This document shows, in pieces, positions 2,849 to 40,308 of a stretch of 40,308 nt of DNA (within the stretch, counting starts at the first letter, position 1; every line of letters begins with the position of its first letter). Source of the stretch: a virus. Lineage: Duplodnaviria > Heunggongvirae > Uroviricota > Caudoviricetes. The stretch lies in the IMG/VR virus record IMGVR_UViG_2778261673_000007. One strand, 5' to 3'. The notes under the pieces were generated by a model that worked only from the letters and a program-made list of their open reading frames with translations, was not told the origin of the DNA and ran no database searches. The translations under genes and the position numbers were made by a program.

Positions 2849-3397
2849 TTAATTTCGCTGTCTGGATTGTTTATGCATCTTATGCAGCTCTTTAAAGCGT
2901 TCCATAAACATCCCGTAGGCATGGCCCGGTGCCAGTGGAATCACGTTGAACATCTCTGTTGCCGGGATGCCTTCCAGCACAGGCCAGAAAGAGCCATCAT
3001 CAAGCCCGAGATCGCGGCGTTCGGTTGCCAGCATGATGAGATCGGCATATTTCACGGGCGTACTCATAACCGGGGGTAACCCGTATTTCTCACGGATTAC
3101 GGCGTCTATTTTTTCTTCCATCTGTTTATAGTCAGGAAGAAGGCGTTTCAGTGGAGCGGGGATGTCCTGGCAATACACTTCTGTTGCATCATGCATTAAC
3201 GCTTCAAAAGCAAATTCCTGCGGTACCAGTTGGCTGCAAAGAACCGCATGTTGGGCGACGCTGTAGAAGTGTGAAAGATGTCCTGCAAAGCGACAGATAT
3301 TTGAAAGGGAAAACGCGATATCGTTAATAACGATGTCGTCTTTATTTATCCTGTCATAATAAAAATGCTTCCCAGAAAAAGTTTTAATAAATGACAT
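2849..3397 (-). CDS. HD-domain phosphohydrolase (YfdR-like 5'-deoxynucleotidase)
   Basis: Translation contains the H...HD metal-binding pattern (AGHLSHF...ALMHDATE); start placed at the internal ATG (MSFIKTF) preceded by GGAG; the ORF-track start at 3460 is probably too far upstream. Confidence 0.7.
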   Translation of the reverse strand: MSFIKTFSGKHFYYDRINKDDIVINDIAFSLSNICRFAGHLSHFYSVAQHAVLCSQLVPQEFAFEALMHDATEVYCQDIPAPLKRLLPDYKQMEEKIDAVIREKYGLPPVMSTPVKYADLIMLATERRDLGLDDGSFWPVLEGIPATEMFNVIPLAPGHAYGMFMERFKELHKMHKQSRQRN

Positions 3398-3525
3398 TTT
3401 GTTCTCCACGTTATTTGCGCTGCACCGCACTGAATTCTGGTAAAAGGAAGCCCTCACCATCCGGCGATTATTGAGTTAATTACGTTTCCATAAATGCCCC
3501 CGCAGGGGCATTTGCAGTAATCAAA

Positions 3526-4350
3526 TCAGGCGGTGAAAGTACCAATAAAGGTTTCTACTTTGCTGTCTTTGAATTTCTCAACAAGCAGATCGCGAAATTC
3601 GTTAGCCATTTCTTCCTGCACCGCCTCCAGCTGAATAATGCGCAGAACAAGTACAGGACGATCGCCAGTGATAATGCTGAGGCGTAATTTAAAAGAACGT
3701 TCTTTCAGACCTTCAAACGGAACGCATTTAAATTCAAATGCCACTGGCATAATGTCTTTGGTCTTCGCTTCGACAGACTCCATCAGGGAGCGTTTGCCGC
3801 TGAAGTCATTGTCTTCAAAATCAGCAGTCTGGTTCGCTTCAATTGTGATTTTACGGATCGCCGCAGCCGCTTTGGTTGCCTGAATGGCGTCACCATTAGC
3901 ATCAAAGCCCACAAGGTTGTCGGCCCAGTCTTCAATCCATTCTGCCAGTGATTTCTGGGAGTTACGCTCGCCGTGAACAGACAACAGAGCAGAGAACGGT
4001 GCTGTCTTTTTCAGTTTGAGAGTGGCGGTGTTATCTGCGTGGCCTGGTTCATCAATAGTACCCAGGTTAAGCACACTGACGGCACGCATATTATCAGCAT
4101 CGATAAAGCAGCGGGTGCCTTCATCTGCAAGATCTTTAGAATAACGGGTAAAGTCATCAATGCTGGCAGTGGAAAGCGCACCACGGAAACGGAAGCGATT
4201 TAAATTAAATTTTTCCAGGTCATGAATGCGGAAATTCTCAGGCAATGCCACAGCATCGGCACCAATCTTACTGATAATTTCATTAACACCCTGAGCAGAA
4301 ATAAGGGCATGGATTTGATTAATTGCGGTTGCGTCTAAGTTCTGAGACAT
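3526..4350 (-). CDS. YfdQ-like DUF2303-family phage protein (274 aa)
   Basis: 274-aa ORF with GAGGA RBS; sequence and length recalled as matching the YfdQ family of the E. coli CPS-53 prophage early region; adjacent to the HD hydrolase as yfdQ-yfdR are. Confidence 0.6.
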
Positions 4351-4415
4351 AATAAGTCCTCACTATATAAAGATATTCAGTGATGAGATAAATAATCAGT
4401 TAATTAAAAACGATA

Positions 4416-4778
4416 TTAACGACCTGCTGCGCGGAGTTTTCCGTCAGGTTCACCGGCAAGAGTCAGTAACTGTCCCTGGTCTTCCTGCAGAATAGTCAGG
4501 CGACCACCGCGATTGACATACATCGGCGTTTCGGTGGTGTCTTCTTCGGAAATTTTCCCGCGGTTAGTCGGGCGAACATATGAGAGTTTGTGTTTGATTT
4601 TCACTCGGTTCTCATCAAACGGTTCGATTTCCAGGTTGAGTGAGACCTTACCTTTGGTTTTCGTGTTCATCACACCGGAAGCGACTTCACTGAGAACTGC
4701 GCCGATTTTGGTTTCAAATACGCCGCCGTCCAGCTCCCCGATAAATGCCTGCACATCAGTACTGCGTTCGCTAGCCAT
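4416..4778 (-). CDS. Hypothetical early-left-operon protein (about 121 aa; start at internal ATG with GGAG RBS)
   Basis: The ORF-track version (4416-5096) extends into GC-rich, non-protein-like sequence; a GGAG-ATG pair at 4776-4778 gives a compact protein with normal composition. Confidence 0.5.
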   Translation of the reverse strand: MASERSTDVQAFIGELDGGVFETKIGAVLSEVASGVMNTKTKGKVSLNLEIEPFDENRVKIKHKLSYVRPTNRGKISEEDTTETPMYVNRGGRLTILQEDQGQLLTLAGEPDGKLRAAGR

Positions 4779-12660: not shown

Positions 12661-13023
12661 ATGCGTGATATTCAGATGGTTCTGGATCGTTGGGGAGCAT
12701 GGGCGGCGAGTGATAGTTCTGGAGTAGACTATTCTCCTATAGCTGCTGGGTTTAAAGGGCTTCTTCCCTATACAAGCAAAACACGTCAGGCTTGTTCAGA
12801 TAGTGATGCATTAATTATTGAAGGTTGTCTTGCTCTTCTTAAGAAGAGAAAACCGTATGAGCACTCTCTGATTGTGGCTCATTACCTGTATGGCATCTCG
12901 AAAAGGAAGATAGCAAAAGCATACAAAAAAGATGAGAAATTGATACGTATAGAGATACAGTTGGCTGAAGGGTTTATAGATGGTTGTCTCTCGATGCTGG
13001 ATATTCGTTTAGAAATGGAGTAA
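12661..13023 (+). CDS. Late-gene antiterminator Q (QuuD-like small Q family)
   Basis: Begins MRDIQMVLDRWGAWAA... which I recall as the N-terminus of the DLP12 QuuD-type antiterminators; position upstream of the lysis cassette; start at internal ATG with GGAGAAAG RBS. Confidence 0.65.
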   Translation: MRDIQMVLDRWGAWAASDSSGVDYSPIAAGFKGLLPYTSKTRQACSDSDALIIEGCLALLKKRKPYEHSLIVAHYLYGISKRKIAKAYKKDEKLIRIEIQLAEGFIDGCLSMLDIRLEME

Positions 13024-13033
13024 TAAAATTAAG

Positions 13034-13064
13034 GCAGCAACATAGAGTTTAACTTTGTTGCTGC
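13034..13064 (-). terminator. Rho-independent terminator for the 13074-13820 cargo gene (9-bp stem, U-rich tail on the minus strand)
   Basis: GCAGCAACA ... TGTTGCTGC inverted repeat; on the minus strand the stem is followed by CUUAAUUUUAUUA. Confidence 0.45.
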
Positions 13065-13073
13065 GTAACAGAT

Positions 13074-13820
13074 TTAATCTGGCATTATGGTAGATAATTG
13101 TGGGCTAGGTTTAACCCCGTAGGTTTCTGATATTCTTTTAACGTTGATACCTACGATTTTTCTGACAGCTCCCAACGAAAATTCTAACTCTTTAATCCCT
13201 GCGTCTTTAGAAGTGTTGTTCATATAATAACGGCATGCTTCTCGAATTGACTTGCAAACGATAAATAGAGGTGATTCATCTGGGATTTGAGAAAGCAAAG
13301 AGGTCAAACATGTTCTTAACTCTTTGAGTGATTCGGCAACAAAACAGGGGTTTTCAAGATGATATTCTACGAACAAAGCCCCTTTATCATCCAATTCATT
13401 TATAATCTTTTTTGCCAGATTTCTTTCATCATGCTGTTGAATATATTTCAAAGCATCGAAGGTAATATTAATCGAACCTTCAAGACAGGAGCTTATAAGG
13501 CTTTCATGATCTTTTTTCCATTTTCTTAATACAGGTGCCGGATAGTCTAGCCCCTGATTCTTATCTATTAATACAGAACAAGTAGCACACAGCCATATGC
13601 CATTGTTAATTGACTTCCTTTCTGTTTCTGATTGTGACATGTCATAGCGTGGGCCATCAGGAGATGCTGCACATATGTGAGCAGCAACTCCTGTCTTGAT
13701 TGATTTATTGCCATCAATTGATGGGCCAATGGTCAATCTAGGGCATGAAGGGTTTGAACAAATGAATGCTGCCCGCTCTGCTAATTTTTTTATAGTGTCT
13801 TTAGAAAAATTATGTCGCAT
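13074..13820 (-). CDS. AT-rich cargo gene: 248-aa protein with N-terminal HNH-like Cys/His nuclease motif and unknown C-terminal domain
   Basis: CSNPSC ... AAHICA ... NNGIWLCATC arrangement resembles a zinc-ribbon HNH nuclease; oriented opposite to flanking phage genes; distinctly lower GC; sits between Q and the late promoter. Confidence 0.5.
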   Translation of the reverse strand: MRHNFSKDTIKKLAERAAFICSNPSCPRLTIGPSIDGNKSIKTGVAAHICAASPDGPRYDMSQSETERKSINNGIWLCATCSVLIDKNQGLDYPAPVLRKWKKDHESLISSCLEGSINITFDALKYIQQHDERNLAKKIINELDDKGALFVEYHLENPCFVAESLKELRTCLTSLLSQIPDESPLFIVCKSIREACRYYMNNTSKDAGIKELEFSLGAVRKIVGINVKRISETYGVKPSPQLSTIMPD

Positions 13821-13912
13821 GTAGTGAACCCAATATATGAGAAAAATATTACTAACGCGGTCCGCATTTTATCATGTAATGTGTTAAGAGTGGTTACTTC
13901 GCCACACAGCTT

Positions 13913-13943
13913 AAACCCGCCGTCGAGCGGGTTTTGTCGTTTC
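13913..13943 (+). terminator. Putative tR'-type terminator downstream of the late promoter (Q-antitermination target region)
   Basis: AACCCGC-cgtcga-GCGGGTT followed by TTTTG; located between Q and the holin, where lambdoid phages place pR', qut and tR'. Confidence 0.45.
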
Positions 13944-14086
13944 TGGGGCTGGGGATTCGTTGGTCCTTGCCTATTCCGCAGTTATCCATTGGTTCGGCTT
14001 CTTTGACGTTTCCGCTTCTGATTTGCGGTACATGATGTTTCCTCAATTTGCACCTGCTGTATCAGCGAGGTGAGAGATAACTACAA

Positions 14087-14413
14087 ATGCCTCATAACCC
14101 AAATACATGGCTGGAGTTGGTCCAGAGCTGGTGGCGTGGAGACACACCGCTGGGCGCAGTGATTATGTCGATTGTTATGGCTGGTTTACGTATTGCCTAT
14201 TTTGGCGGTGGTGGCGGCTGGAAACGAAAAACACTCGAAATTCTACTCTGTGGCGCTCTGACGCTGACTTTCGCATCCGCTCTTGAGTATGTCGGATGGC
14301 CTAAATCACTATCTGTTGCCATTGGTGGTGGGGTGGGGCTGATCGGTGTTGATGCTATTCGTGGGGCTGCAATGAGAGTAATCGGTAACAAGTTTGGTGG
14401 CTCTAAGGAGTAA
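14087..14413 (+). CDS. Holin (lambda S-like)
   Basis: 108 aa, hydrophobic helices with a charged C-terminus; resembles lambda S in the ...GGG...TLTFASALEYVG...IGVDAIRG region; immediately precedes the endolysin. Confidence 0.8.
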   Translation: MPHNPNTWLELVQSWWRGDTPLGAVIMSIVMAGLRIAYFGGGGGWKRKTLEILLCGALTLTFASALEYVGWPKSLSVAIGGGVGLIGVDAIRGAAMRVIGNKFGGSKE

Positions 14414-14416
14414 TTT

Positions 14417-14893
14417 ATGCAGGTACTAAATTCCCAGCGTAAAGCTTTCCTGGATATGGTGGCATGGTCAGAGGGAACGGATAACGGGCGACAACTGACA
14501 CGTAACCACGGTTATGACGTTATTGTCGGTGGAGAACTCTTCACTGATTACTCCGATCACCCTCGCAAACTTGTCACGCTAAACCCGAAACTCAAATCAA
14601 CAGCTGCAGGCCGTTATCAACTTCTTTCACGCTGGTGGGATGCTTACCGCAAGCAGCTTGGGTTGAAAGACTTCTCTCCAAAAAGCCAGGATGCTGTGGC
14701 ATTGCAGCAGATTAAAGAGCGTGGCGCTTTACCGATGATTGATCGCGGCGATATTCGTCAGGCTATCGATCGTTGCAGCAATATCTGGGCTTCACTGCCG
14801 GGCGCTGGTTACGGTCAGTATGAACATAAAATCGGTGACCTGATTGCCCGGTTTAAAGAGGCTGGTGGGGTGGTAAATGAAGTTGAGCTATAA
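14417..14893 (+). CDS. Endolysin, lambda R-type lytic transglycosylase
   Basis: Near-identical by recall to lambda R over most of its length (NQRKAFLDM.AWSEGTDNGRQ.TRNHGYDVIVGGELFTDYSDHPRKLVTLNPKLKST.AGRYQLLSRWWDAYRKQLGLKDF...). Confidence 0.9.
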   Translation: MQVLNSQRKAFLDMVAWSEGTDNGRQLTRNHGYDVIVGGELFTDYSDHPRKLVTLNPKLKSTAAGRYQLLSRWWDAYRKQLGLKDFSPKSQDAVALQQIKERGALPMIDRGDIRQAIDRCSNIWASLPGAGYGQYEHKIGDLIARFKEAGGVVNEVEL

Positions 14894-15338
14894 GCTGGTT
14901 ATCGCTGTTTTCTTCGTTTCTGTCGTTGGTTCTTTTATCTGTTCAGTGAATCATTACCACAATAAAGCTATTGAATACAAAAAGCAGCGTGATGAGAATG
15001 CTATGGCATTAGATTCGGCTATGGCGACCATCTCTGATATGCAGAAGCGTCAACGTGACGTAGCAGAACTTGACGCCAGATACACAAAGGAGCTTGCTGA
15101 TGCTAACGCGACTATCGAAAGTCTCCGTGCTGATGTTTCTGCTGGGCGTAAGCGCCTGCAAGTCGCTGCCACCTGTGCAAAGTCAACGACCAGAGCCAGC
15201 GGCATGGGCGATGGAGAAAGTCCAAGACTTACAGCAGATGCTGAACTCAATTATTACCGTCTCCGAAGTGGAATCGACAAGATAACGGCGCAGGTTAACT
15301 ACTTGCAGGAGTATGTAAAGTTGCAGTGTTTGCATTGA
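14877..15338 (+). CDS. Rz i-spanin
   Basis: N-terminal TM helix then coiled-coil periplasmic domain; overlaps endolysin end; contains an embedded +1-frame lipoprotein gene. Confidence 0.8.
   Translation: MKLSYKLVIAVFFVSVVGSFICSVNHYHNKAIEYKKQRDENAMALDSAMATISDMQKRQRDVAELDARYTKELADANATIESLRADVSAGRKRLQVAATCAKSTTRASGMGDGESPRLTADAELNYYRLRSGIDKITAQVNYLQEYVKLQCLH
15100..15285 (+). CDS. Rz1 o-spanin (embedded lipoprotein)
   Basis: Embedded in Rz in another frame; signal peptide with lipobox-like VSAC; Pro-rich mature region; GGAG 7 nt upstream of the ATG at 15100. Confidence 0.7.
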   Translation: MLTRLSKVSVLMFLLGVSACKSLPPVQSQRPEPAAWAMEKVQDLQQMLNSIITVSEVESTR

Positions 15339-15386
15339 CCTTGACTATTTGACAGTTGTTAAATGTTTTCTCCAAATGGGGAGAGA

Positions 15387-16076
15387 ATGATGAGAATTTT
15401 TGGGTGCGGTGTTTTAGTTAGTGTCGTTTATTTCTTTGGCTTAGGTATTACGATCCATGTTCTTGATTTGAACCAGATGACGTCGTGGAATGAGTTTGGA
15501 GATTTTCTTGCTGGTGCATTTTCCCCAGTGGCCTTTTTTTGGCTTGTGCTTGGGTATTTACAGCAACAAAAAGAACTACAGCAAAATACTGAAGCGTTAA
15601 AGTTACAAGCCACTGAGTTGAAAAACTCAGTCGAACAATATAAAGAGATGGTTTCCGTTTCTAAACAGCAATTAGAAAATGAATCAATCAAAGCCATGAC
15701 AGAAAGGCTGGAAAGAGAAAAAGAAACGAAGCCTGATCTATATATGTTGAATCTGGGATGGTCAGTTAAAAGTGGTGATCAGTATGAGTATAATTGGTCG
15801 GTATTTAGTGATGGTAAAACAGCGAAAAATATAAGCTTAACTTTTGACCCTCCTATCGGGGAATATAGCTCGCATTTTTTTAGAAGTAGCAATGGCGCAA
15901 TTAAACTTCCTAAAAATAAAATAAATGCTGGAGATGTGCCTGAACATTTTCGGGTCGTTTTGACTTATGAGAGTATATTGGGGTATTCGTATGAATCTGA
16001 ATATCATTATGAGCATGATATGAATGGTATGTATAATTTAATTGATTCTGCTGATTATCAGCGAACAAAGATTTAA
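15387..16076 (+). CDS. AT-rich cargo gene: two-TM membrane protein with coiled-coil and unknown C-terminal domain
   Basis: Start taken at the ATG pair following GGGGAGAG; two hydrophobic helices, a Q/E/K-rich coiled-coil stretch, then a Tyr-rich C-terminal domain; strong terminator follows; low GC. Confidence 0.5.
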   Translation: MMRIFGCGVLVSVVYFFGLGITIHVLDLNQMTSWNEFGDFLAGAFSPVAFFWLVLGYLQQQKELQQNTEALKLQATELKNSVEQYKEMVSVSKQQLENESIKAMTERLEREKETKPDLYMLNLGWSVKSGDQYEYNWSVFSDGKTAKNISLTFDPPIGEYSSHFFRSSNGAIKLPKNKINAGDVPEHFRVVLTYESILGYSYESEYHYEHDMNGMYNLIDSADYQRTKI

Positions 16077-16118
16077 CTACAGTCGTGGTACTGTCAGAGT
16101 AAATTGTTACTATGAATT

Positions 16119-16143
16119 AGCCTCGCATTAGCGAGGCTTTTTA
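16119..16143 (+). terminator. Rho-independent terminator (AGCCTCGC-atta-GCGAGGCT + TTTTT)
   Basis: Perfect 8-bp stem, 4-nt loop, T-run; directly downstream of the cargo gene ending at 16076. Confidence 0.65.
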
Positions 16144-16154
16144 CTGGTGTTTTT

Positions 16155-16505
16155 ATGCCCCCACGAACCCCAAAAGCCTGCCGCGTTCGCGGTTGCCGCA
16201 ATACCACTACTGACCCGTCAGGCTATTGTGAAAGCCATAAAAGCGAAGGCTGGAAGCAATACAAGCCAGGACAATCCCGTCATCAGCGCGGCTACGGTTC
16301 GAAATGGGATGCTATCCGTGAACGTGTACTGAAACGTGACAAAGGTTTATGTCAGTTATGTCTGCGTGCCGGTGTGGTGCGTGAAGCGAAAACCGTTGAC
16401 CACATCATCCCTAAAGCGCATGGCGGCACTGATGCCGACTGTAATCTGCAGAGTCTGTGCTGGCCGTGTCATAAGGCGAAGACGGCCCGTGAACGGTTGA
16501 AGTGA
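16155..16505 (+). CDS. HNH endonuclease (terminase-associated)
   Basis: CxxC...H...N...H...CxxC pattern (CRVRGCRN ... DHIIPKAHGGTDADCNLQSLCWPCH); located just upstream of terminase genes as in HK97-like packaging modules. Confidence 0.8.
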   Translation: MPPRTPKACRVRGCRNTTTDPSGYCESHKSEGWKQYKPGQSRHQRGYGSKWDAIRERVLKRDKGLCQLCLRAGVVREAKTVDHIIPKAHGGTDADCNLQSLCWPCHKAKTARERLK

Positions 16506-16526
16506 TAATGATTCTCAACTTCCTGA

Positions 16527-16592
16527 GGGGAGGGGCGGGTCAAATCCCTGCGGCCTGACGTCTTCCGGACTGCCCGCCCCATCGTTTTTTTA
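16527..16592 (+). terminator. GC-rich stem (GGGGCGGG / CCCGCCCC) with long loop followed by T7: terminator-like element, possibly cos-proximal
   Basis: Read directly; located between the HNH gene and terminase small subunit, where HK97-type phages place cos. Confidence 0.35.
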
Positions 16593-16630
16593 TACCCGCG
16601 AAAAATGAAATTTAACCAGGAGTGCCGCAT

Positions 16631-17125
16631 ATGGCTGGAACGGCGGGGCGTTCCGGGCGTCGCCCCAAGCCAACGGCGCGCAAGGCGCTGGCCGGAAACC
16701 CCGGCAAGCGAGCCCTGAATAAAGATGAACCTGTTTTTACGCCCATCAAAGGTGTTGAGCCACCGGAGTGGTTCGCTGAAGAAGATCTCCCTCTCGCTAC
16801 GATCATGTGGCAACTGACAACTAAAGAACTCTGCGGTCAGGGCCTGCTGTGCGTGACTGACCTTGCGGTGCTTGAGCGGTGGTGCGTGGCCTACGAGTTC
16901 TGGCGACGTGCCGTGAAAAATATTGCCAGACAGGGCAACACCATCACCGGTGCAATGGGCGGTATGGTCAAAAATCCGGAGCTGACTGCCAAAAAAGAAC
17001 AGGAGTCCGAGATGAGCAGTACGGGGGCAATGCTCGGACTCGACCCCAGCAGCCGCCAGCGTCTGATTGGCCTGGCGGGGAAGAAGAAAGCCACTAACCC
17101 GTTTCTGAAAATCATCGAATCATGA
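16631..17125 (+). CDS. Terminase small subunit (P27-like)
   Basis: Position immediately upstream of the large terminase; basic N-terminus; start taken at the ATG 9 nt after AGGAG. Confidence 0.7.
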
Positions 17126-18855
17126 GCCGGAAATCTTACCCCAACGTAAATGCTGCAAATCAGTATGCCCGGGATGTCGTGCGCGGAAAGATTGTTGCCT
17201 GCCAGTTTGTGATTCAGGCCTGCCAGCGCCATCTTGATGACCTGATGGCGGAAAAAAGTAAGTCGTTTCGTTACCGCTTCGACAAGGACCTGGCTGAACG
17301 GGCCGCGAAATTTATTCAGCTGTTGCCGCACACCAAGGGGGAGTGGGCATTCAAACGGATGCCCATCACGCTGGAGCCGTGGCAGCTATTTGTGATCTGC
17401 TGTGCGTTTGGCTGGGTCAATAAAGGCACCCGGTTGCGCCGCTTCCGGGAGGTGTACACCGAAATCCCCCGTAAGAACGGCAAATCAGCAATCTCTGCCG
17501 GTGTTGCCCTGTATTGTTTTGCCTGTGATAACGAGTTTGGCGCGGAAGTGTATTCCGGTGCCACGACAGAGAAACAGGCGTGGGAAGTCTTTCGCCCGGC
17601 GCGACTGATGTGTAAACGCACACCCATGCTGACGGAAGCGTTCGGGATTGAGGTTAACGCCTCAAACATGAACCGTCCGGAGGATGGCGCGCGGTTTGAA
17701 CCGCTGATCGGCAACCCAGGTGATGGTTCATCACCCCACTGTGCCGTGGTTGATGAATATCACGAGCATGCCACCGATGCGCTTTATACCACAATGCTTA
17801 CCGGGATGGGGGCGCGACGTCAGCCACTGATGTGGGCCATCACCACCGCCGGGTACAACATTGAGGGGCCGTGCTACGACAAGCGGCGGGAAGTCATCGA
17901 GATGCTCAACGGCTCGGTGCCTAACGATGAACTGTTCGGGATCATCTATACCGTTGATGAAGGTGACGACTGGACCGACCCGCAGGTGCTGGAAAAAGCC
18001 AATCCAAATATTGGCGTGTCGGTTTATCGCGAATTTTTGTTAAGTCAGCAGCAGCGTGCGAAAAATAACGCCCGTCTGGCAAACGTCTTTAAAACAAAAC
18101 ACCTCAATATCTGGGTGTCGGCGCGTTCGGCGTATTTCAACCTGGTGAGCTGGCAGAGCTGCGAGGATAAATCACTGACTCTTGAGCAGTTCGAGGGGCA
18201 GCCGTGCATTCTGGCCTTTGACCTGGCGCGTAAGCTGGATATGAACAGCATGGCGCGACTTTATACCCGCGAGATTGACGGTAAAACGCATTACTACAGT
18301 GTGGCCCCGCGTTTCTGGGTACCGTATGACACGGTGTACAGCGTCGAGAAAAATGAAGATCGCCGGACAGCCGAACGCTTTCAGAAATGGGTGGAAATGG
18401 GCGTTCTGACCGTTACCGATGGTGCAGAGGTGGATTATCGCTACATCCTTGAAGAGGCCAAAGCGGCGAACAAAATCAGCCCGGTCAGTGAGTCACCCAT
18501 CGACCCTTTCGGAGCGACCGGGCTGTCACATGACCTTGCTGATGAAGACCTGAATCCCGTTACTATCGTCCAGAACTTCGCCAATATGTCCGACCCGATG
18601 AAAGAGCTGGAGGCAGCGATTGAATCGGGACGCTTTCATCATGACGGCAATCCCATCATGACCTGGTGTATCGGCAATGTGGTCGGCAAAAACATGCCAG
18701 GTAACGATGATTTAGTGAAGCCCGTCAAAGAGCAGGCGGAAAACAAAATCGATGGTGCAGTTGCGCTGATTATGGCGGTTGGCAGAGCCATGCTGTACGA
18801 GAAAGAAGACACGCTGTCTGACCACATTGAGTCCTATGGGATCCGCTCGCTTTAA
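17122..18855 (+). CDS. Terminase large subunit
   Basis: 577 aa; Walker-like ATPase region and C-terminal nuclease acidic residues (...[11 protein letters not shown]...); overlaps small-subunit stop. Confidence 0.9.
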
Positions 18856-18866
18856 CTGAGGTAATT

Positions 18867-19049
18867 ATGATCATGCTGATTCTCGCGCCTCTGGTGGGCG
18901 TGCTGGGGGCGCTTTTGCTGGCGTATGGTGCCTGGCTGATTTATCCCCCGGCGGGGTTTGTTGTTGCCGGGGCGTTGTGTCTGTTCTGGTCGTGGCTGGT
19001 GGCGCGATATCTCGACCGTACACAGTCGTCTGTCGGCGGAGGTAAATAG
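18867..19049 (+). CDS. Small hydrophobic protein (60 aa), uncertain
   Basis: Two hydrophobic helices; short gap-filling ORF between terminase and portal. Confidence 0.3.
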
Positions 19050-20290
19050 TGTTCTTTTCGGGATTATTTCAACGAAAAAGTGACGCACCGGTGACCACGC
19101 CAGCAGAGCTGGCGGATGCTATCGGGTTGTCCTACGACACCTATACCGGAAAGCAGATCAGCAGCCAGCGGGCCATGCGACTGACGGCGGTTTTTTCCTG
19201 TGTCAGGGTGCTGGCGGAGTCGGTCGGGATGTTGCCCTGCAACCTGTATCACCTGAACGGCAGTCTGAAGCAGAGAGCCGCTGGCGAACGTCTGCATAAG
19301 CTGATCTCCACGCATCCCAATGGCTATATGACGCCGCAGGAGTTCTGGGAGCTGGTGGTCACCTGTCTGTGCCTGCGGGGAAACTTTTACGCCTACAAAG
19401 TGAAAGCATTTGGCGAAGTGGCTGAACTGCTGCCCGTCGATCCCGGCTGTGTGGTACCGAAGCTTAACAGTAGCTGGGAGCCGGTCTATCAGGTCACATT
19501 CCCGGATGGCTCCACGGATGTACTGAGCCAGGAGGATATCTGGCATGTGCGCACGCTGACGCTGGACGGACTGGTGGGGCTGAATCCCATCGCCTATGCC
19601 CGCGAGGCAATATCGCTGGCGGCAGCGACCGAAGAGCACGGGGCCAGACTGTTCAGCAATGGCGCGGTGACGTCGGGTGTGTTGCGTACAGAGCAGACGC
19701 TGTCAGATCAGGCTTATGAGCGCCTGAAGAAAGATTTTGAGGAGCGTCACACCGGGCTTGGCAATGCTCACCGCCCGATGATCCTTGAGATGGGGCTGGA
19801 CTGGAAGTCGATGGCGCTGAACGCCGAGGACAGCCAGTTCCTGGAAACCCGCAAGTTTCAGCTTGAAGAAATCTGTCGTCTGTTCCGGGTGCCGTTGCAC
19901 ATGGTGCAGAACACCGATCGCGCCACCTTCAACAATATCGAAGAGCTGGGGCTGGGATTTATCAACTATTCACTGGTGCCGTATCTGACCCGCATCGAAC
20001 AGCGGATCAACACCGGACTGGTACGAAAAAGTAAGCAGGGCGTTTATTACGCCAAATTTAACGCCGGGGCGTTACTGCGCGGGGATATGAAGTCCCGTTT
20101 TGAAGCCTACGCCACCGGGATCAACTGGGGAATTTACTCTCCCAATGACTGCCGCGACCTGGAAGATATGAATCCACGACCCGGTGGTGATGTCTATCTC
20201 ACACCGATGAACATGACCACGAAACCCTCCGATGGCAGTAAAGCCGGTAAGCAGAAGGATAACGCCAATGCAGACGAAACAACGTCTTGA
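19049..20290 (+). CDS. Portal protein (HK97 family)
   Basis: 413 aa, follows terminase; GTG start with GGAGGT RBS; portal-like composition and order. Confidence 0.85.
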   Translation: MFFSGLFQRKSDAPVTTPAELADAIGLSYDTYTGKQISSQRAMRLTAVFSCVRVLAESVGMLPCNLYHLNGSLKQRAAGERLHKLISTHPNGYMTPQEFWELVVTCLCLRGNFYAYKVKAFGEVAELLPVDPGCVVPKLNSSWEPVYQVTFPDGSTDVLSQEDIWHVRTLTLDGLVGLNPIAYAREAISLAAATEEHGARLFSNGAVTSGVLRTEQTLSDQAYERLKKDFEERHTGLGNAHRPMILEMGLDWKSMALNAEDSQFLETRKFQLEEICRLFRVPLHMVQNTDRATFNNIEELGLGFINYSLVPYLTRIEQRINTGLVRKSKQGVYYAKFNAGALLRGDMKSRFEAYATGINWGIYSPNDCRDLEDMNPRPGGDVYLTPMNMTTKPSDGSKAGKQKDNANADETTS

Positions 20291-35905: not shown

Positions 35906-37795
35906 TTAATCGTATTTTGGCCATACTTTCAATGCAATTTCCCCCAACTTTTTACCTCGCTCCAGTATTTCACTCTCATCCCATTTATCCTTAAGTATAA
36001 GTGGTATGTTCAGTCGTAGATTGGTGTGGACGATGAGAGCATCACGTTTTTTCAGAAATACAGCATTCTGAACGGAACGGTTTACGCTAAGGTTAAGCAA
36101 AGTTAGATTTCCCAACGTAGCTATCGCTTGTTGCCGTTTCCTTACCAGTAGCTGTTCAGGGGTAAGATCGGTTCCAGACAGAACAATTTGGTTCATTACC
36201 GTAGCATCTGAATTTGTCACCATATGACCATTTTCGAGAGGCCAACAGGAATACCAACTTTGAGGCATAAGATGATCGATATCGAGATTAGAAAGATTTG
36301 GAACATCAGGCTTTTCTGTCTTCACTTGGCGACAAAGTTCTCTTTCAAGTTCCGTTAACATTGAGCGCATTTTCGGTGCGTCGAGCCTGCCAGGATAAAG
36401 TGGAGCATTGATGCAAGCGTTGAGAAATTCTGAGTCCCCAGGCCAACGTGAGGCTTCGCCATTTAAGCTATTGAGGATATTACGTAACTCAATACTGGAA
36501 ATTTCCGTTTTAGACAAGTGTCGCAATACATTCATAAATACATTGTTGTAATTCTTTGGCGTCAGGCCACATACGGATCTTCGTACTACGTAGGAGACAA
36601 GATCATTATACATGGCTGCTTTCTCATCATCGGCGATGTTAGCTATCGAAATGAACAAAGCAAGCGGATAGAGTGTCGTCACATCATAGGCTGCGATGCG
36701 ATGTCCAAAGTGTGAGATGGGGGTTGTGCCAAAACCACCAACCAATTCTTTATATTGTGATGCATATTGTTTGAGGCGCTTTACTTGCAGATCTGCTCGT
36801 TGTGAAGGCAAGTCCTTACTTACATAATCACGATACTCATTGTAAAGGCGAGACAGATCAATTTCACGCTGCCTTTCTGATTGCAATGTCGCATGTACAA
36901 GCCACTCCATGCGTGGTTTATTAATACGTCCACGGCGTTGCTTTTCCGACCAGTATTTATCTTCAAAGATCTTCCACTCATTTTCATATAATTCAATAGT
37001 ATTAATATTTTCATGCTCAGCGCACATAAAGATATAGTTGCGAATAAGATCCGTTGCATGAAGTTCCGCTCCTCGCCCATTTAATGTTTCAAAAATTATT
37101 TGGGCATCATCTTCAGCTTCGAGAAATATGCTTACCAGTTTCAGATCCGTCAAGACAGCCTCAATTAGTGCTACAGCATTTTCTTGTGGTGAGCGGTTTT
37201 CTATTTTAATCCATTTTATAAAGGCTTCAGTAAAAAACCATAATGCCTCTAGTGACGGCGGGTGGTTGAAATGTTTACGTAACGTACCATGTTGCGTGAA
37301 GCTATCAGAAAATACATTACGGAGATCGTCAATATTATCAACATTAAGACTTTGAATAAAATGAGTTTGATCTCGAAAAGTTGGCCACAGTTTGAAGCAT
37401 TCTACCTTTTTATTTCTCATCGTTGCTTCGTTTGTATTTTTCAAGCAAGTCAATACTAACCCTTCCAGTTCAGAAAGGCCTGTAGCACGCAATGATAATC
37501 GAATGGATGCCAGAATATATTGAAGAGTGGTTAAACGTTGCTGGCCGTCAATAATATGTATGGTATCTACACCTAACAAGCTGTTTTTGAGTTGAGGTTC
37601 CAGCACCACCGCGCCGAGGAAATGAGGGGTTGGTTTTGTTCCCGAAAGTCGGCTCTGTGCTTTTTCGAAGATATCCTCCAGCAAAGCTGACCATTGGTTT
37701 CGTTGCGTCCATACGTAGGCACGTTGATAGAATGGAACACGATATTGTCGTTGATTTTGGAAAATTTGCTGGATGGTTAGCGTTTCGGATTTCAT
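35906..37795 (-). CDS. GmrSD-family type IV (modification-dependent) restriction endonuclease: N-terminal DUF262, C-terminal DUF1524/HNH-like
   Basis: N-terminal VPFYQRAYVW and IIDGQQRLTTL motifs (DUF262 NTPase-like); C-terminal DIDHLMPQS and GNLTLLNLSVNRSVQNAVFLKKR motifs (DUF1524 nuclease); 629 aa; strongly AT-rich relative to flanking phage DNA. Confidence 0.8.
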   Translation of the reverse strand: MKSETLTIQQIFQNQRQYRVPFYQRAYVWTQRNQWSALLEDIFEKAQSRLSGTKPTPHFLGAVVLEPQLKNSLLGVDTIHIIDGQQRLTTLQYILASIRLSLRATGLSELEGLVLTCLKNTNEATMRNKKVECFKLWPTFRDQTHFIQSLNVDNIDDLRNVFSDSFTQHGTLRKHFNHPPSLEALWFFTEAFIKWIKIENRSPQENAVALIEAVLTDLKLVSIFLEAEDDAQIIFETLNGRGAELHATDLIRNYIFMCAEHENINTIELYENEWKIFEDKYWSEKQRRGRINKPRMEWLVHATLQSERQREIDLSRLYNEYRDYVSKDLPSQRADLQVKRLKQYASQYKELVGGFGTTPISHFGHRIAAYDVTTLYPLALFISIANIADDEKAAMYNDLVSYVVRRSVCGLTPKNYNNVFMNVLRHLSKTEISSIELRNILNSLNGEASRWPGDSEFLNACINAPLYPGRLDAPKMRSMLTELERELCRQVKTEKPDVPNLSNLDIDHLMPQSWYSCWPLENGHMVTNSDATVMNQIVLSGTDLTPEQLLVRKRQQAIATLGNLTLLNLSVNRSVQNAVFLKKRDALIVHTNLRLNIPLILKDKWDESEILERGKKLGEIALKVWPKYD

Positions 37796-38051
37796 TGTTT
37801 ACCTATAAATAACATTAAGTGACATTCTACAAGAGTAAGAAATTCATCTGAGTCAGAACAATCATTTTTATGTAGTTATGATACAGTGTATTTGTTACTG
37901 GTGAAGTAAAAATAAGAAACCCCGCTTTTGAATGCTGACGCGCTACGGTTTCATTGGATATTTTTTGTCTCTCCTCCATCCCGTTGGTGTTCTGTTTAGA
38001 CTGATAACTTGCTGTTTTAATTGATATTAGTTTCTTGCGCCGCCCAATCAT

Positions 38052-38077
38052 GGTTGGTGGGTTGGTGGGTTGGTGGG
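38052..38077. repeat. Tandem repeat (GGTTGGTG)x3
   Basis: Read directly, about 260 bp upstream of the GmrSD gene start. Confidence 0.5.
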
Positions 38078-38622
38078 AGTTAAATCCACATTGGTATGAA
38101 TAACATAGAATATGAATTAGTGTTTCAGAATTGCTTCAGCCATCACTTTTTAATACGTTCAATTTGAATGTTTATTTCCGAAACAATTTTTTCAGGTTTC
38201 AGTCCCTCGTTAGATTGCACAAAATCTCTAATTTGCATCATTCGATGTGCACAAATTTGTAATTCGCTATAAACACTTAGCTCGTCAGATTCATTTTGAG
38301 ATTGTTCACCTGTTTAAAATTCTACATAAGTATGTGGCGGATTGTGATAAACACGAGAAATCGGGGTTGGCCACCATTCCTCACCGGTCACTACGTCCGC
38401 ATCGAATAGTACAGTTTTGTCAATTTCCATTAATTTCTGGATAAGAACAGAAGTTTTCAAGCGAACCTCCATTTTGCCATAAAGTGGTTATCAAAACGCT
38501 ACGTAAACTATACAAAATCAGCGAGTTATGGTGAAGGTAAAAAAACAAGTTTAGATGTTCGTTAAGTATAAAATTGTTTTAATTCAATTGGATATAATAA
38601 TTTTCTAAATCTAATGCTGCGC

Positions 38623-38778
38623 CATATGGGTTGGACTGAAGCGGCTGACCTGATTGTTAAAGGTATGGAAGGCGCAATCAATGCCAAGACCGTAACTTAT
38701 GACTTCGAACGTCTGATGGAAGGCGCTAAGCTGCTGAAATGTTCAGAGTTTGGTGAAGCGATCATCGAAAACATGTAA
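38623..38778 (+). pseudogene. icd: Displaced 3' fragment of isocitrate dehydrogenase gene (last ~52 codons), marking the prophage-host junction
   Basis: Translation [51 protein letters not shown] matches the Icd C-terminus as recalled; homology begins abruptly after AT-rich sequence at about 38620; no upstream icd coding sequence present. Confidence 0.8.
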
Positions 38779-38800
38779 TCTCTCCATGTGTTAAATATTG

Positions 38801-38833
38801 AAACGGGCGTATAACACGCCCGTTGTTTTATTT
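38801..38833 (+). terminator. icd rho-independent terminator
   Basis: AAACGGGCGT-ataac-ACGCCCGTT followed by GTTTTATTT. Confidence 0.7.
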
Positions 38834-38880
38834 ATGTGGATATTATTAATAGCATATCGAGCATATTTATATGAAGCCCA

Positions 38881-39204
38881 TTACTTGAGCCCATATGGGC
38901 ATATTTTTATAATGCAACTATTATGTAAACATTTATTTGTTATTTTGCTTTCTCCTGGAGGACACTCTTGACTGCTTTTGAGTAAACTCCATAAATCCTT
39001 GTTGAATGGTGCGATGTGATAAATAGTAATAGGATATTCTTTATCCTTAAGGATAATACCAGACTTAACCGGTGTAAATATACTGCCAGGAGGGAGAAAT
39101 ATAGTAGATTGATACCAGATGATCATTTTCATATTACCCCATATGGCTGAAAAAGATATACCACATGTAGGTTGAATTACCGTGTCAATTACTATCCACT
39201 TCAT
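38881..39204 (-). CDS. iraM: IraM-like anti-adaptor protein (107 aa)
   Basis: 107-aa AT-rich ORF in the position downstream of icd/e14 where iraM lies in E. coli K-12; identification from recalled size and neighbourhood. Confidence 0.55.
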
Positions 39205-39664
39205 TTGTTATGTCTTATCCCACGGTATTTAATATGGTTCATTAGGATGTTTATTTCTTGATTTTGCATATGAGTATATTACCCCCCCCTCAAAAAAATA
39301 AATTAATTAAAATAATGGCTTATATAAAATAAAATTTAAAGCAAGGAATCTCAATGGATGTTAAACAAAATGAGATTTTGTGAAAGCAATAAATTATTGA
39401 CTTCGTTTTAGATTTGTTTAGCTATAATGTTATACATTCAAATGACTGAACATCCTGTAATTAAAACATAGCCTTTATGCTACTTTGTGCCAATTTGCTA
39501 AACATTATGGTTGCCTTTTTATATAACGATAATAATGAATATAAGCATGACATGAGAATAAGGTTTCAATTTTTGAGTTATATAGGAATGATTTAACCTG
39601 TTCCTGGCTAAAATACATATAACCGGATGATGACTAAACCAAAATACATGTGCGTTAAGTATTG

Positions 39665-39696
39665 AAACGGACGTGTGGCACGGCCGTTGTTTTTAT
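39665..39696 (+). terminator. Second, diverged copy of the icd terminator region (orphan)
   Basis: ATTGAAACGGACGTGTGGCACGGCCGTTGTTTTTAT is about 85 percent identical to the sequence at 38797-38833; no plus-strand gene upstream. Confidence 0.4.
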
Positions 39697-39903
39697 AAAT
39701 ATGTTAACCGTTATAAAATAACGTATCAAAAGTCAAGTGATCACATTTCAAATATCAAGTTGATAGTATTAGTCTGGTGATTATTTATGGGTGACAATAA
39801 AAAGACAGTATTAATCATCCATAGAGATAGTCTCTGCACTTTTATTTCCATTATGCTAATGCCTTACTGAATTATGAAGCATTTCTTAAGTATCCAACTT
39901 TAG

Positions 39904-40308
39904 CTAGATTAATGGTTTATTATTTTCTACATCTTCAATATATAAAAGCGTATTATCAATGGCGTAGTAACTGCGTTTGTTATGATTAACATCAGTAACC
40001 CACCGGAAAACGCCCGCGCCTGCCAGTGTTGAACAGTATTCCCGAAATGTAGATTTTCCGCAAATATGAAGCAATGCGGCCTCTTTTATTTTAGCAGGGT
40101 TCTTGGTCGTACTAACTTTTAACAGGTTCCTGGTTCCTCTTAATAACAAAACCGTATCATCGTGAGTAATAATTCTGATGTTATCCGTAGCCAGATAATA
40201 AATGTAATGTGCAATACGGTGATGTTTTAATTCTGAATAAAACCAGGAGAAGTTTTGCTCTTTTCTCACTTGCTCAAACATCTTTTGAAAAACAACGACC
40301 TGATCCAT
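39904..40308 (-). CDS. ycgX: YcgX-like DUF1398 protein (134 aa)
   Basis: 134-aa ORF with ATG at the window edge (40306-40308); size and position next to iraM match K-12 ycgX by recall. Confidence 0.55.
   Translation of the reverse strand: MDQVVVFQKMFEQVRKEQNFSWFYSELKHHRIAHYIYYLATDNIRIITHDDTVLLLRGTRNLLKVSTTKNPAKIKEAALLHICGKSTFREYCSTLAGAGVFRWVTDVNHNKRSYYAIDNTLLYIEDVENNKPLI

Follow-up and report, generated by a model that had tools for sequence, protein, structure and literature searches.

Why does iraM, the gene for an anti-adaptor of RssB, lie between two copies of the icd terminator, immediately beyond a prophage that occupies the attachment site in icd? The preliminary description of this locus took the repeat to be the scar of an older integration at the same site and suggested that iraM itself may sit on a remnant element. 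The window examined here (the whole stretch of 40,308 nt) is E. coli DNA. Its left part (1–38613, + strand) is an e14-family prophage of ~37 kb that is seemingly complete and forms the youngest layer of the locus; the attL of this prophage and the functional icd lie to the left of the window. In NZ_CP028166, a near-identical genome (99.9% over the region), intE and xisE are annotated, and the attL, seen outside the window in the matching genome, bears an e14-type P′ arm. The late-gene ORFs of the prophage are on the + strand and a P-arm site (GGTTATCAAAAC) is found at 38486. At attR lies icdC (38614–38778, + strand; stop codon at 38776–38778), the displaced 3′ end of icd with 54 codons. Translation of this ORF matches the C-terminus of Icd, and matching genomes annotate it as an N-terminally truncated isocitrate dehydrogenase pseudogene. 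Rightwards from icdC come the hairpin of the first terminator copy, iraM (−), an AT-rich upstream region with ymgK, the second terminator copy, ymgL and ycgX (−).

The right end of the resident prophage has two further features. Its cargo includes a gene for a GmrSD-type (DUF262/DUF1524) type IV restriction enzyme of 629 aa (35906–37795, − strand), in the slot that mcrA occupies in e14 of K-12; the position looks like a swappable anti-phage defence slot beside attR. Between this gene and attR, the non-coding DNA holds a tandem repeat of GGTTGGTG, present ~3.5 times (38051–38078).

The two terminator copies are here called T1 (38785–38835, + strand; core 38787–38829) and T2 (39647–39696, + strand; core 39651–39693). 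Between them is the iraM cassette (38830–39650, − strand), a piece of AT-rich remnant DNA with a G+C content of 31% that comprises iraM, a long upstream region and ymgK. The ungapped cores are identical at 36 of 43 positions (84%), and their starts are 864 bp apart. If one 2-nt gap is allowed, the match reaches the CATGTG at 38785/39647, and there is a weak extension to ~38835/39696. The repeat of ~50 bp given in the preliminary description is real: both copies lie where it had placed them, and the likeness is far above chance (local alignment score 29; dinucleotide shuffles of the 1 kb downstream, 500 in number, scored 10.3 ± 1.2 and never above 15). A degenerate pattern for the terminator hairpin, for which 0 matches were expected in the 40-kb window, matched twice, at T1 and at T2, and the likeness between the copies takes in 15 nt upstream of the hairpin.

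T1 is predicted to be an intrinsic (Rho-independent) terminator, i.e. a stable, G+C-rich hairpin followed by a T-run. The hairpin (38802–38824) lies 7–9 nt past the icdC stop codon and has 9 bp, including 6 G-C pairs, with a folding energy of −18.4 kcal/mol (z = −4.6). The weakened hairpin of T2 in the window (39666–39688) has an A.G mismatch in the stem and, at −10.2 kcal/mol (z = −0.8), is no better than shuffles. Other lineages carry a form of T2 with a perfect stem, GGGCGTATGGCACGCCC (−15.3 kcal/mol), which has only 4–5 changes relative to T1 and is the likely ancestor. There are four T2 variants across lineages. The stem is broken by different mutations in the K-12/window lineage (−10.2 kcal/mol) and in the B/Shigella lineage (−9.9 kcal/mol), with one intermediate seen. 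Judged from sequence, the T2 hairpin appears to be decaying independently in different lineages, a pattern of relaxed constraint, and the best explanation would be that T2 no longer terminates icd. At the level of single positions, both partners of one T2 stem pair (39671 and 39682) have changed in the K-12/window lineage, from G-C to A.G; the intermediate with only the G-to-A change is present in one viral-contig sequence.

How much of icd was duplicated around iraM? The terminator was, as the preliminary description had it, while left of T2 no icd coding sequence can be made out. When the DNA in this position was aligned to icd, both locally and globally with the terminator as anchor, z-scores were −0.6 to 1.3 relative to dinucleotide shuffles, and its three-frame translations held no icd coding trace. 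A by-eye identity of 50% to icd in a MAFFT alignment was dropped because the scores were at shuffle level. A 27-nt similarity (78%) between the resident P arm (38543–38569) and the DNA left of T2 was likewise set aside as chance, its scores being at shuffle level in a comparison with 35 distinct P arms. For the resident prophage, icdC and T1 represent the duplication in full, with ~165 bp of coding sequence that starts at the core site and ~55 bp more that take in the terminator. Over the next 18 kb rightwards, from ycgX to ycgN, no more terminator or icd 3′-end scars were found, and an Rfam scan returned nothing meaningful. Two other origins of the repeat were rejected. A transposon target-site duplication does not suit repeats of 43–50 nt that are 84–91% identical and have neither terminal inverted repeats nor a transposase; a dispersed repeat of the REP/BIME kind does not suit a pattern that occurs only at icd-linked sites in the scanned E. 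coli and Shigella genomes.

The extent of the repeat can be compared with the junctions that icd-integrating phages make. Integration of e14 in icd and the icdC pseudogene are credited to Hill et al. 1989 in PMC6379469. In the attL of e14 (K-12), of the strain of the resident prophage and of an O157:H7 prophage, a phage-supplied icd end is followed by a phage-supplied homologue of the terminator. At all three junctions, the similarity between phage and host ends just past CCCGTTGTTTT, which is the right boundary of the T1/T2 repeat. This agreement between the end of the repeat and the end of phage-borne homology in three independent icd-phage attL junctions speaks for the older integration at the icd site that had been proposed.

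We scanned one genome per bacterial species with the terminator pattern and obtained 34 matches in 32 stretches; 26 were icd-linked and six were unrelated, with the Shigella T2 listed twice. Save for the T1/T2 copies and one contig with an empty site, the icd-linked matches are attL junctions of icd prophages, in Citrobacter, Scandinavium, Yokenella, Enterobacter, Erwinia, Tenebrionibacter, E. albertii, E. ruysiae and others. The arms at these junctions are either of the e14 type (GCTAACGGTTATCAAAATTTTATCAAAA) or of the O157/21 type (TTCCCCAAAAC repeats). The T2 type itself was confined to E. coli and Shigella, always right of iraM, and did not turn up in other species with no insertion at icd, as an ordinary intergenic motif might have. 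Neither a free phage nor another species with a T2-type terminator was found in the species scan and the viral contigs, where all 28 matches of the T2 type are prophage calls that overrun attR into iraM–ycgX. In these 28 IMG/VR contigs T2 lies at constant offsets from iraM and ycgX, and most of them end ~650 nt past T2.

Comparison of 5426 complete E. coli genomes distinguished three configurations of the locus. In type A (T1–iraM–T2), the whole stretch from the icd end through iraM to ymgL is present (3851 of the 5426 genomes). Many type A genomes have an intact icd and no prophage there, so iraM belongs neither to e14 nor to the resident prophage; it lies beyond the attR of e14. In type B, found in 1038–1048 genomes (~19%), the iraM cassette is missing as one block. 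Nissle 1917 and the type strain ATCC 11775 are among them; we take both to be B2 strains. Type B genomes have a single terminator, to which T1 is identical and which is T1-type at every variable position, joined exactly to the DNA right of T2. Therefore, the ends of the 864-bp indel, which consists of the iraM cassette and one repeat copy, coincide exactly with the repeats; types A and B diverge at the same point where the likeness between T1 and T2 ends. No chimeric terminators with a T1 left part and a T2 right part were found in the iraM-less genomes, the best identity being that given by the two engineered mismatches.

Type C comprises 19 genomes, e.g. NZ_ABACVG020000001 (stretch 12877–19405). 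From the left, these have icd, a T1-type terminator and a well-preserved e14-type P′ arm without an integrase, then a gene for a hypothetical protein of 455 aa, an IS5 remnant, trkG (which is prophage-borne in Rac of K-12) and another terminator. To the right of these are a variant of iraM with 80% identity at the nucleotide level, a ymgB/ariR-like gene and DNA homologous to the region upstream of iraM (74%). ycgX (88–89% identical) comes directly after the iraM region, and both T2 and ymgL are missing. Core genes on the flanks are 94.6–97% identical to those of K-12 and O157, compared with 98.6% between K-12 and O157, and the position of iraM beside ycgX is therefore old. Type C appears to be a divergent lineage that also has iraM beside ycgX, and its attL might belong to a later element than that of iraM. 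In types A and C alike, the homology between them starts directly behind the T-run of a terminator; this suggests that two T-runs were joined there.

Some variation lies outside this scheme. About 500 further genomes (~10%) match the query only over the icd 3′ end. O157:H7 YB14-1 has a prophage at icd and no icdC–iraM–ymgL stretch at megablast sensitivity, so that the DNA right of icd has probably undergone a larger replacement or deletion there. The genomes named E. coli that make up type C, with flanking core genes 3–5% diverged, may be a cryptic clade. The icd 3′ ends are mosaic (E-N-M or K-N-M), and in some B2 strains the 5′ part of the terminator (GTTAAAAACGGTAACGGG) resembles phage-borne attL copies from E. 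ruysiae and Citrobacter braakii; this suggests that the icd-end/terminator segment may often be exchanged between phages and hosts. Within the last iraM codons (..CPYGLK) there is a palindrome, GCCCATATGGGC (38889–38900; CCATGTGG in type C), which has the 9-mer CCATATGGG in common with the icd att core (38621–38629). The sharing is probably a coincidence within coding sequence. In a genome near-identical to the window (stretch 2986–4758), the blue-light/c-di-GMP module right of ycgX is degenerate, because IS1 splits bluF and pdeG has an internal stop.

T1 and T2 are direct repeats, and so recombination between them would delete iraM precisely, with predicted junctions in AACGGGCGTAT or CCCGTTGTTTT. 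A single terminator at the exact junction expected from such recombination is what the iraM-less strains were found to have, in a comparison that the preliminary description had already envisaged. One case can be followed closely. In strain Z1323CEC0015, icd is intact and iraM is missing. The terminator of this strain shows the T1 markers typical of the B-strain/Shigella haplotype (GTTTAATATTGC), and its right flank and ymgL segment are identical to those of the iraM-positive B-strain/Shigella haplotype. No other genome among the 5426 is of this kind, from which the deletion is both recent and independent; the T1 × T2 crossover must fall in CCCGTTGTTTT. Precise loss between short direct repeats, leaving one hybrid copy, is the same outcome as in the deletion of genomic islets. 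Unlike in those cases, the repeats here are displaced terminator copies, 43 nt in length and 84–91% identical, and not IS or att cores.

For B2 as a whole, absence of iraM would be more parsimoniously explained as a secondary loss, because the type C lineage also has the gene. No species outside E. coli was found with icd next to ycgX–bluR. The closest YcgX/BluR relatives elsewhere lie in the fli region (Escherichia sp.), in a prophage (E. albertii) and in a fimbrial locus (Citrobacter), and such unrelated contexts cannot polarise the indel. With no outgroup that has icd–ycgX–bluR, the polarity rests on the type C lineage and the one observed deletion.

Does the DNA right of T2 retain any part of a phage attachment site? 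Directly after T2 lies a stretch of 57 nt (39689–39745, + strand), also present after the single terminator in type B, that resembles a degenerate e14-family P′ arm, i.e. the arm of a fossil attL. It holds three arm-site-like repeats, CGTTATAAAA, CGTATCAAAAG and AGTGATCAC. In an alignment anchored at the terminator, against the consensus of 20 e14-type attL P′ arms, this flank scored 19, compared with 0.1 ± 3.9 for shuffles (0 of 2000 reached the score). Leaving out the shared T-run gave a score of 13 versus −0.1 ± 3.1 (2 of 5000 shuffles), and none of 1630 AT-rich control windows reached the score of the T2 flank. The match holds in six haplotypes (z = 3.4–4.9), and the spacing to TAAC[G/C]GTTAT is 15 nt, compared with 16 nt in e14-type arms. 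There was no similarity to the arm of the 21/O157 type, and the right flank of T1 in the window haplotype has no clear arm. An unanchored P′-arm profile search over the whole window gave weak hits only; since this search missed the arm and the anchored test was significant, the P′-arm evidence depends on position.

A P′ arm next to a terminator is thus found at T2 in degenerate form and in type C intact. Such an arm behind T2, and type C genomes in which iraM lies behind an intact e14-type attL and its cargo, strengthen the case for an older integration. As for the att-site scar itself, the idea of an integration scar is supported, but there is more to it than a leftover attR: T2 is without the icd coding part that a complete attR would have, and with its flank it is best read as attL, putatively of a still older e14-family element that holds ymgL–ycgX. 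Of these genes, ymgL (39741–39851, − strand) is a small ORF of 36 aa inside the older relic, annotated in matching RefSeq genomes and re-derived from the window. In the cassette itself, no integrase, no excisionase and no remnant of either was found, and iraM is the only ORF of any size. P-arm sequence was also not found in the cassette, where scores against 35 distinct P arms were at shuffle level. The missing integrase and excisionase fit decay but are no positive evidence for it.

The genes on both sides of T2 point to phages. iraM (38881–39204, − strand) encodes a protein of 107 aa that belongs to a moron family of lambdoid phages and matches phrog_4407 (E = 4e-51). In Stx2 phages, genes for homologues with 65% identity come straight after stx2B, on the strand opposite to the late operon. 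Three diverged IraM clusters for which the context was fetched (57–70% identical) are in lambdoid prophages, in the interval from Q (or a toxin or other cargo) to nanS-p/holin, again antisense. In all, 34 clusters were found for IraM, with only Escherichia names where a name was given. The family (PF11183 / phrog_4407) thus has the marks of a moron, i.e. a conserved phage slot, antisense orientation to the late operon and AT-rich DNA. DNA homology between the cassette and the iraM loci of Stx phages was sought beyond the coding sequence and rejected, as none was found. YcgX, the product of ycgX (39904–40308, − strand) in the older relic right of T2, represents a second lambdoid moron family (PF07166, DUF1398, E = 1e-47; phrog_413). 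Its homologue in E. albertii is encoded between Rz and Nu1 of a lambdoid prophage, antisense. iraM followed by ycgX, both opposite to icd, is the order and orientation of a prophage oriented like the resident one. The comparisons show that the IraM and YcgX families are, as far as sequence relationships tell, of phage ancestry, and the suggestion that iraM sits on a remnant element gains by this: its homologues are lambdoid-prophage morons.

IraM homologues (65–70%) stand beside stx2B in many Stx2a and Stx2c phages (at 4001–4324 in one of the stretches compared), and one record names the gene iraM; we found no paper in which RpoS stabilisation in EHEC by these stx2B-adjacent homologues was tested. 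Functional regulation of iraM by PhoP is known from the literature. Earlier work on IraL of UPEC CFT073 and phage-borne IraM homologues described iraM and iraL in different mobile contexts and placed iraM on the e14 prophage (PMC4045071). The present locus agrees with that work in the family concerned (PF11183), in horizontal acquisition and in the restriction to Escherichia/Shigella. It differs in that iraM is beyond the attR of e14 and is present without any icd prophage.

Taken together, the region right of icd seems to be a stack of phage remnants from successive integrations at the icd attachment site, a reading to which we give a probability of roughly 0.6. The comparisons above show what it builds on, namely the T1/T2 repeat, an indel with clean ends, two gene families of phage ancestry, the P′-arm-like flank and one recent deletion mediated by the repeats; from these we infer the order of events and the entry of the iraM element through the icd core site. 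Phages of the e14/21 kind recombine inside icd, supply its last 165 bp and the terminator, and push the previous copy to their far end. An early e14-family element in icd would have left T2, the P′ arm, ymgL and ycgX. A second element would then have brought T1 and displaced the old icd end and T2 rightwards, after which the right part of that element would have been lost to deletions, along with the P arm, the core site and the coding piece of the displaced icd end. In type A, deletion of the P′ arm and cargo would have left iraM, its regulatory region and ymgK between T1 and T2; in type C, a 225-bp deletion would have taken T2 and ymgL. B2 would have lost iraM by recombination between T1 and T2, as one other strain did independently. 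Finally, a third and apparently intact e14-family prophage would have integrated in the window, moving icdC and T1 to its own right end. A bolder version, for which we would put the odds a little short of even, holds that the icd site is a readable stratigraphy of serial e14-family/lambdoid integrations, with iraM and ycgX as domesticated morons and the repeats as a deletion module that explains the B2-wide absence of iraM.

This history has its cost. As there is no icd coding remnant left of T2, the deletion of the displaced 165 bp must end within ~10 nt of the old stop codon, a coincidence that counts against serial integration, and the terminator in B2 is T1-type throughout where a T2-like one is predicted if B2 never had iraM. 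Both points have a place in the main rival, an insertion targeted to the terminator, in which the iraM element would have integrated by a crossover in the T-run and carried T2 as its own terminator-like sequence. T2 would now serve the converging ymgL–ycgX transcript, T1 would be the untouched host terminator and B2 would represent the ancestral empty site. Hairpins are plausible core sites for tyrosine recombinases. The duplication covers the terminator alone, starting 7–9 nt after the icd stop codon with no icd coding remnant; the terminator of the empty site is T1-type at every variable position; and T2 differs from the B2 terminator by 4–5 changes in 45 nt, with 4 fixed differences in the adjoining 229 nt, as if T2 were foreign. 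However, neither a recombinase gene nor an element with a T2-type site was found, the 28 viral contigs being over-extended prophage calls, and the T2 type was found in no other species. Every known element at the icd locus recombines inside icd. The divergent type C also has iraM, by which the B2 state is argued to be a loss, and the same empty-site structure demonstrably arose by deletion in Z1323CEC0015. We therefore hold an insertion at the terminator to be distinctly unlikely.

An origin of the cassette and T2 as a recombinational patchwork also seems unlikely to us. Homologous or homology-facilitated illegitimate recombination, with diverged chromosomes or phage-borne icd/terminator copies as partners, would here have built the arrangement with no element decaying in place. 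The region is indeed strongly mosaic, with icd 3′ ends, terminator 5′ parts and a ymgL segment that are 5–10% divergent and with recombinant haplotypes, and in E. ruysiae and Citrobacter the same terminator variants occur at host sites as in the attL of phages. Such exchange leaves unexplained why direct terminator copies should have genes of phage families exactly between them and a P′-arm fossil after the second; it takes more ad hoc steps than serial integration, and type C has a genuine attL upstream of iraM. The last possibility is that T2 is an ordinary motif, i.e. an independent terminator or a dispersed intergenic repeat that resembles the icd terminator by chance. Structures of a hairpin and a T-run can converge and the surrounding AT-rich DNA favours short chance repeats, but no shuffle scored above 15 where T1 and T2 score 29, and the similarity includes the 15 nt upstream of the hairpin. 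Outside icd-linked sites the pattern is absent from the E. coli genomes, as it is from the rest of the window, and the T2 hairpin is not conserved, so that we regard this possibility as effectively refuted.

The nearest parallel is the integration of e14 and phage 21, which reportedly share one attB. The locus is the same, as are the replacement of the icd 3′ end and terminator, the displacement of the old copy, the homology boundary after the terminator T-run and the e14-type arm sites next to the terminator. In contrast to these phages, what survives of the displaced copy here is only its terminator part, and core site, integrase and P arm are all missing; the remnant measures 0.8 kb, compared with 15–40 kb, and the scar lies outside the annotated e14 or e14-like prophage and is older. 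The cryptic, ‘grounded’ prophages of K-12 (DLP12, Qin and Rac; PMC6379469) have likewise kept self-regulated phage accessory genes in AT-rich DNA after deletion of the prophage. The iraM locus differs from them in that a single gene cassette remains, that two to three layers would be stacked at one attachment site, each with a displaced terminator copy at its head.

The kinds of feature involved (att duplications, cryptic prophage remnants and domesticated morons) are already known. Our literature searches found no description of a duplicated icd terminator, nor of the anatomy as a whole, with two terminators bracketing iraM, a fossil attL and repeat-mediated loss. The common statement that iraM is on e14 is corrected by this analysis: the gene is outside the prophage, on an older remnant, and its family still travels on Stx and other lambdoid phages. 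For annotation, the scar accounts for the way in which prophage predictors run past the true attR at icd. Deletion between the terminator copies provides a concrete mechanism for the patchy presence of an RpoS-stabilising factor across E. coli lineages, and the locus shows how host regulatory loci can grow in layers when one attachment site is used again and again.
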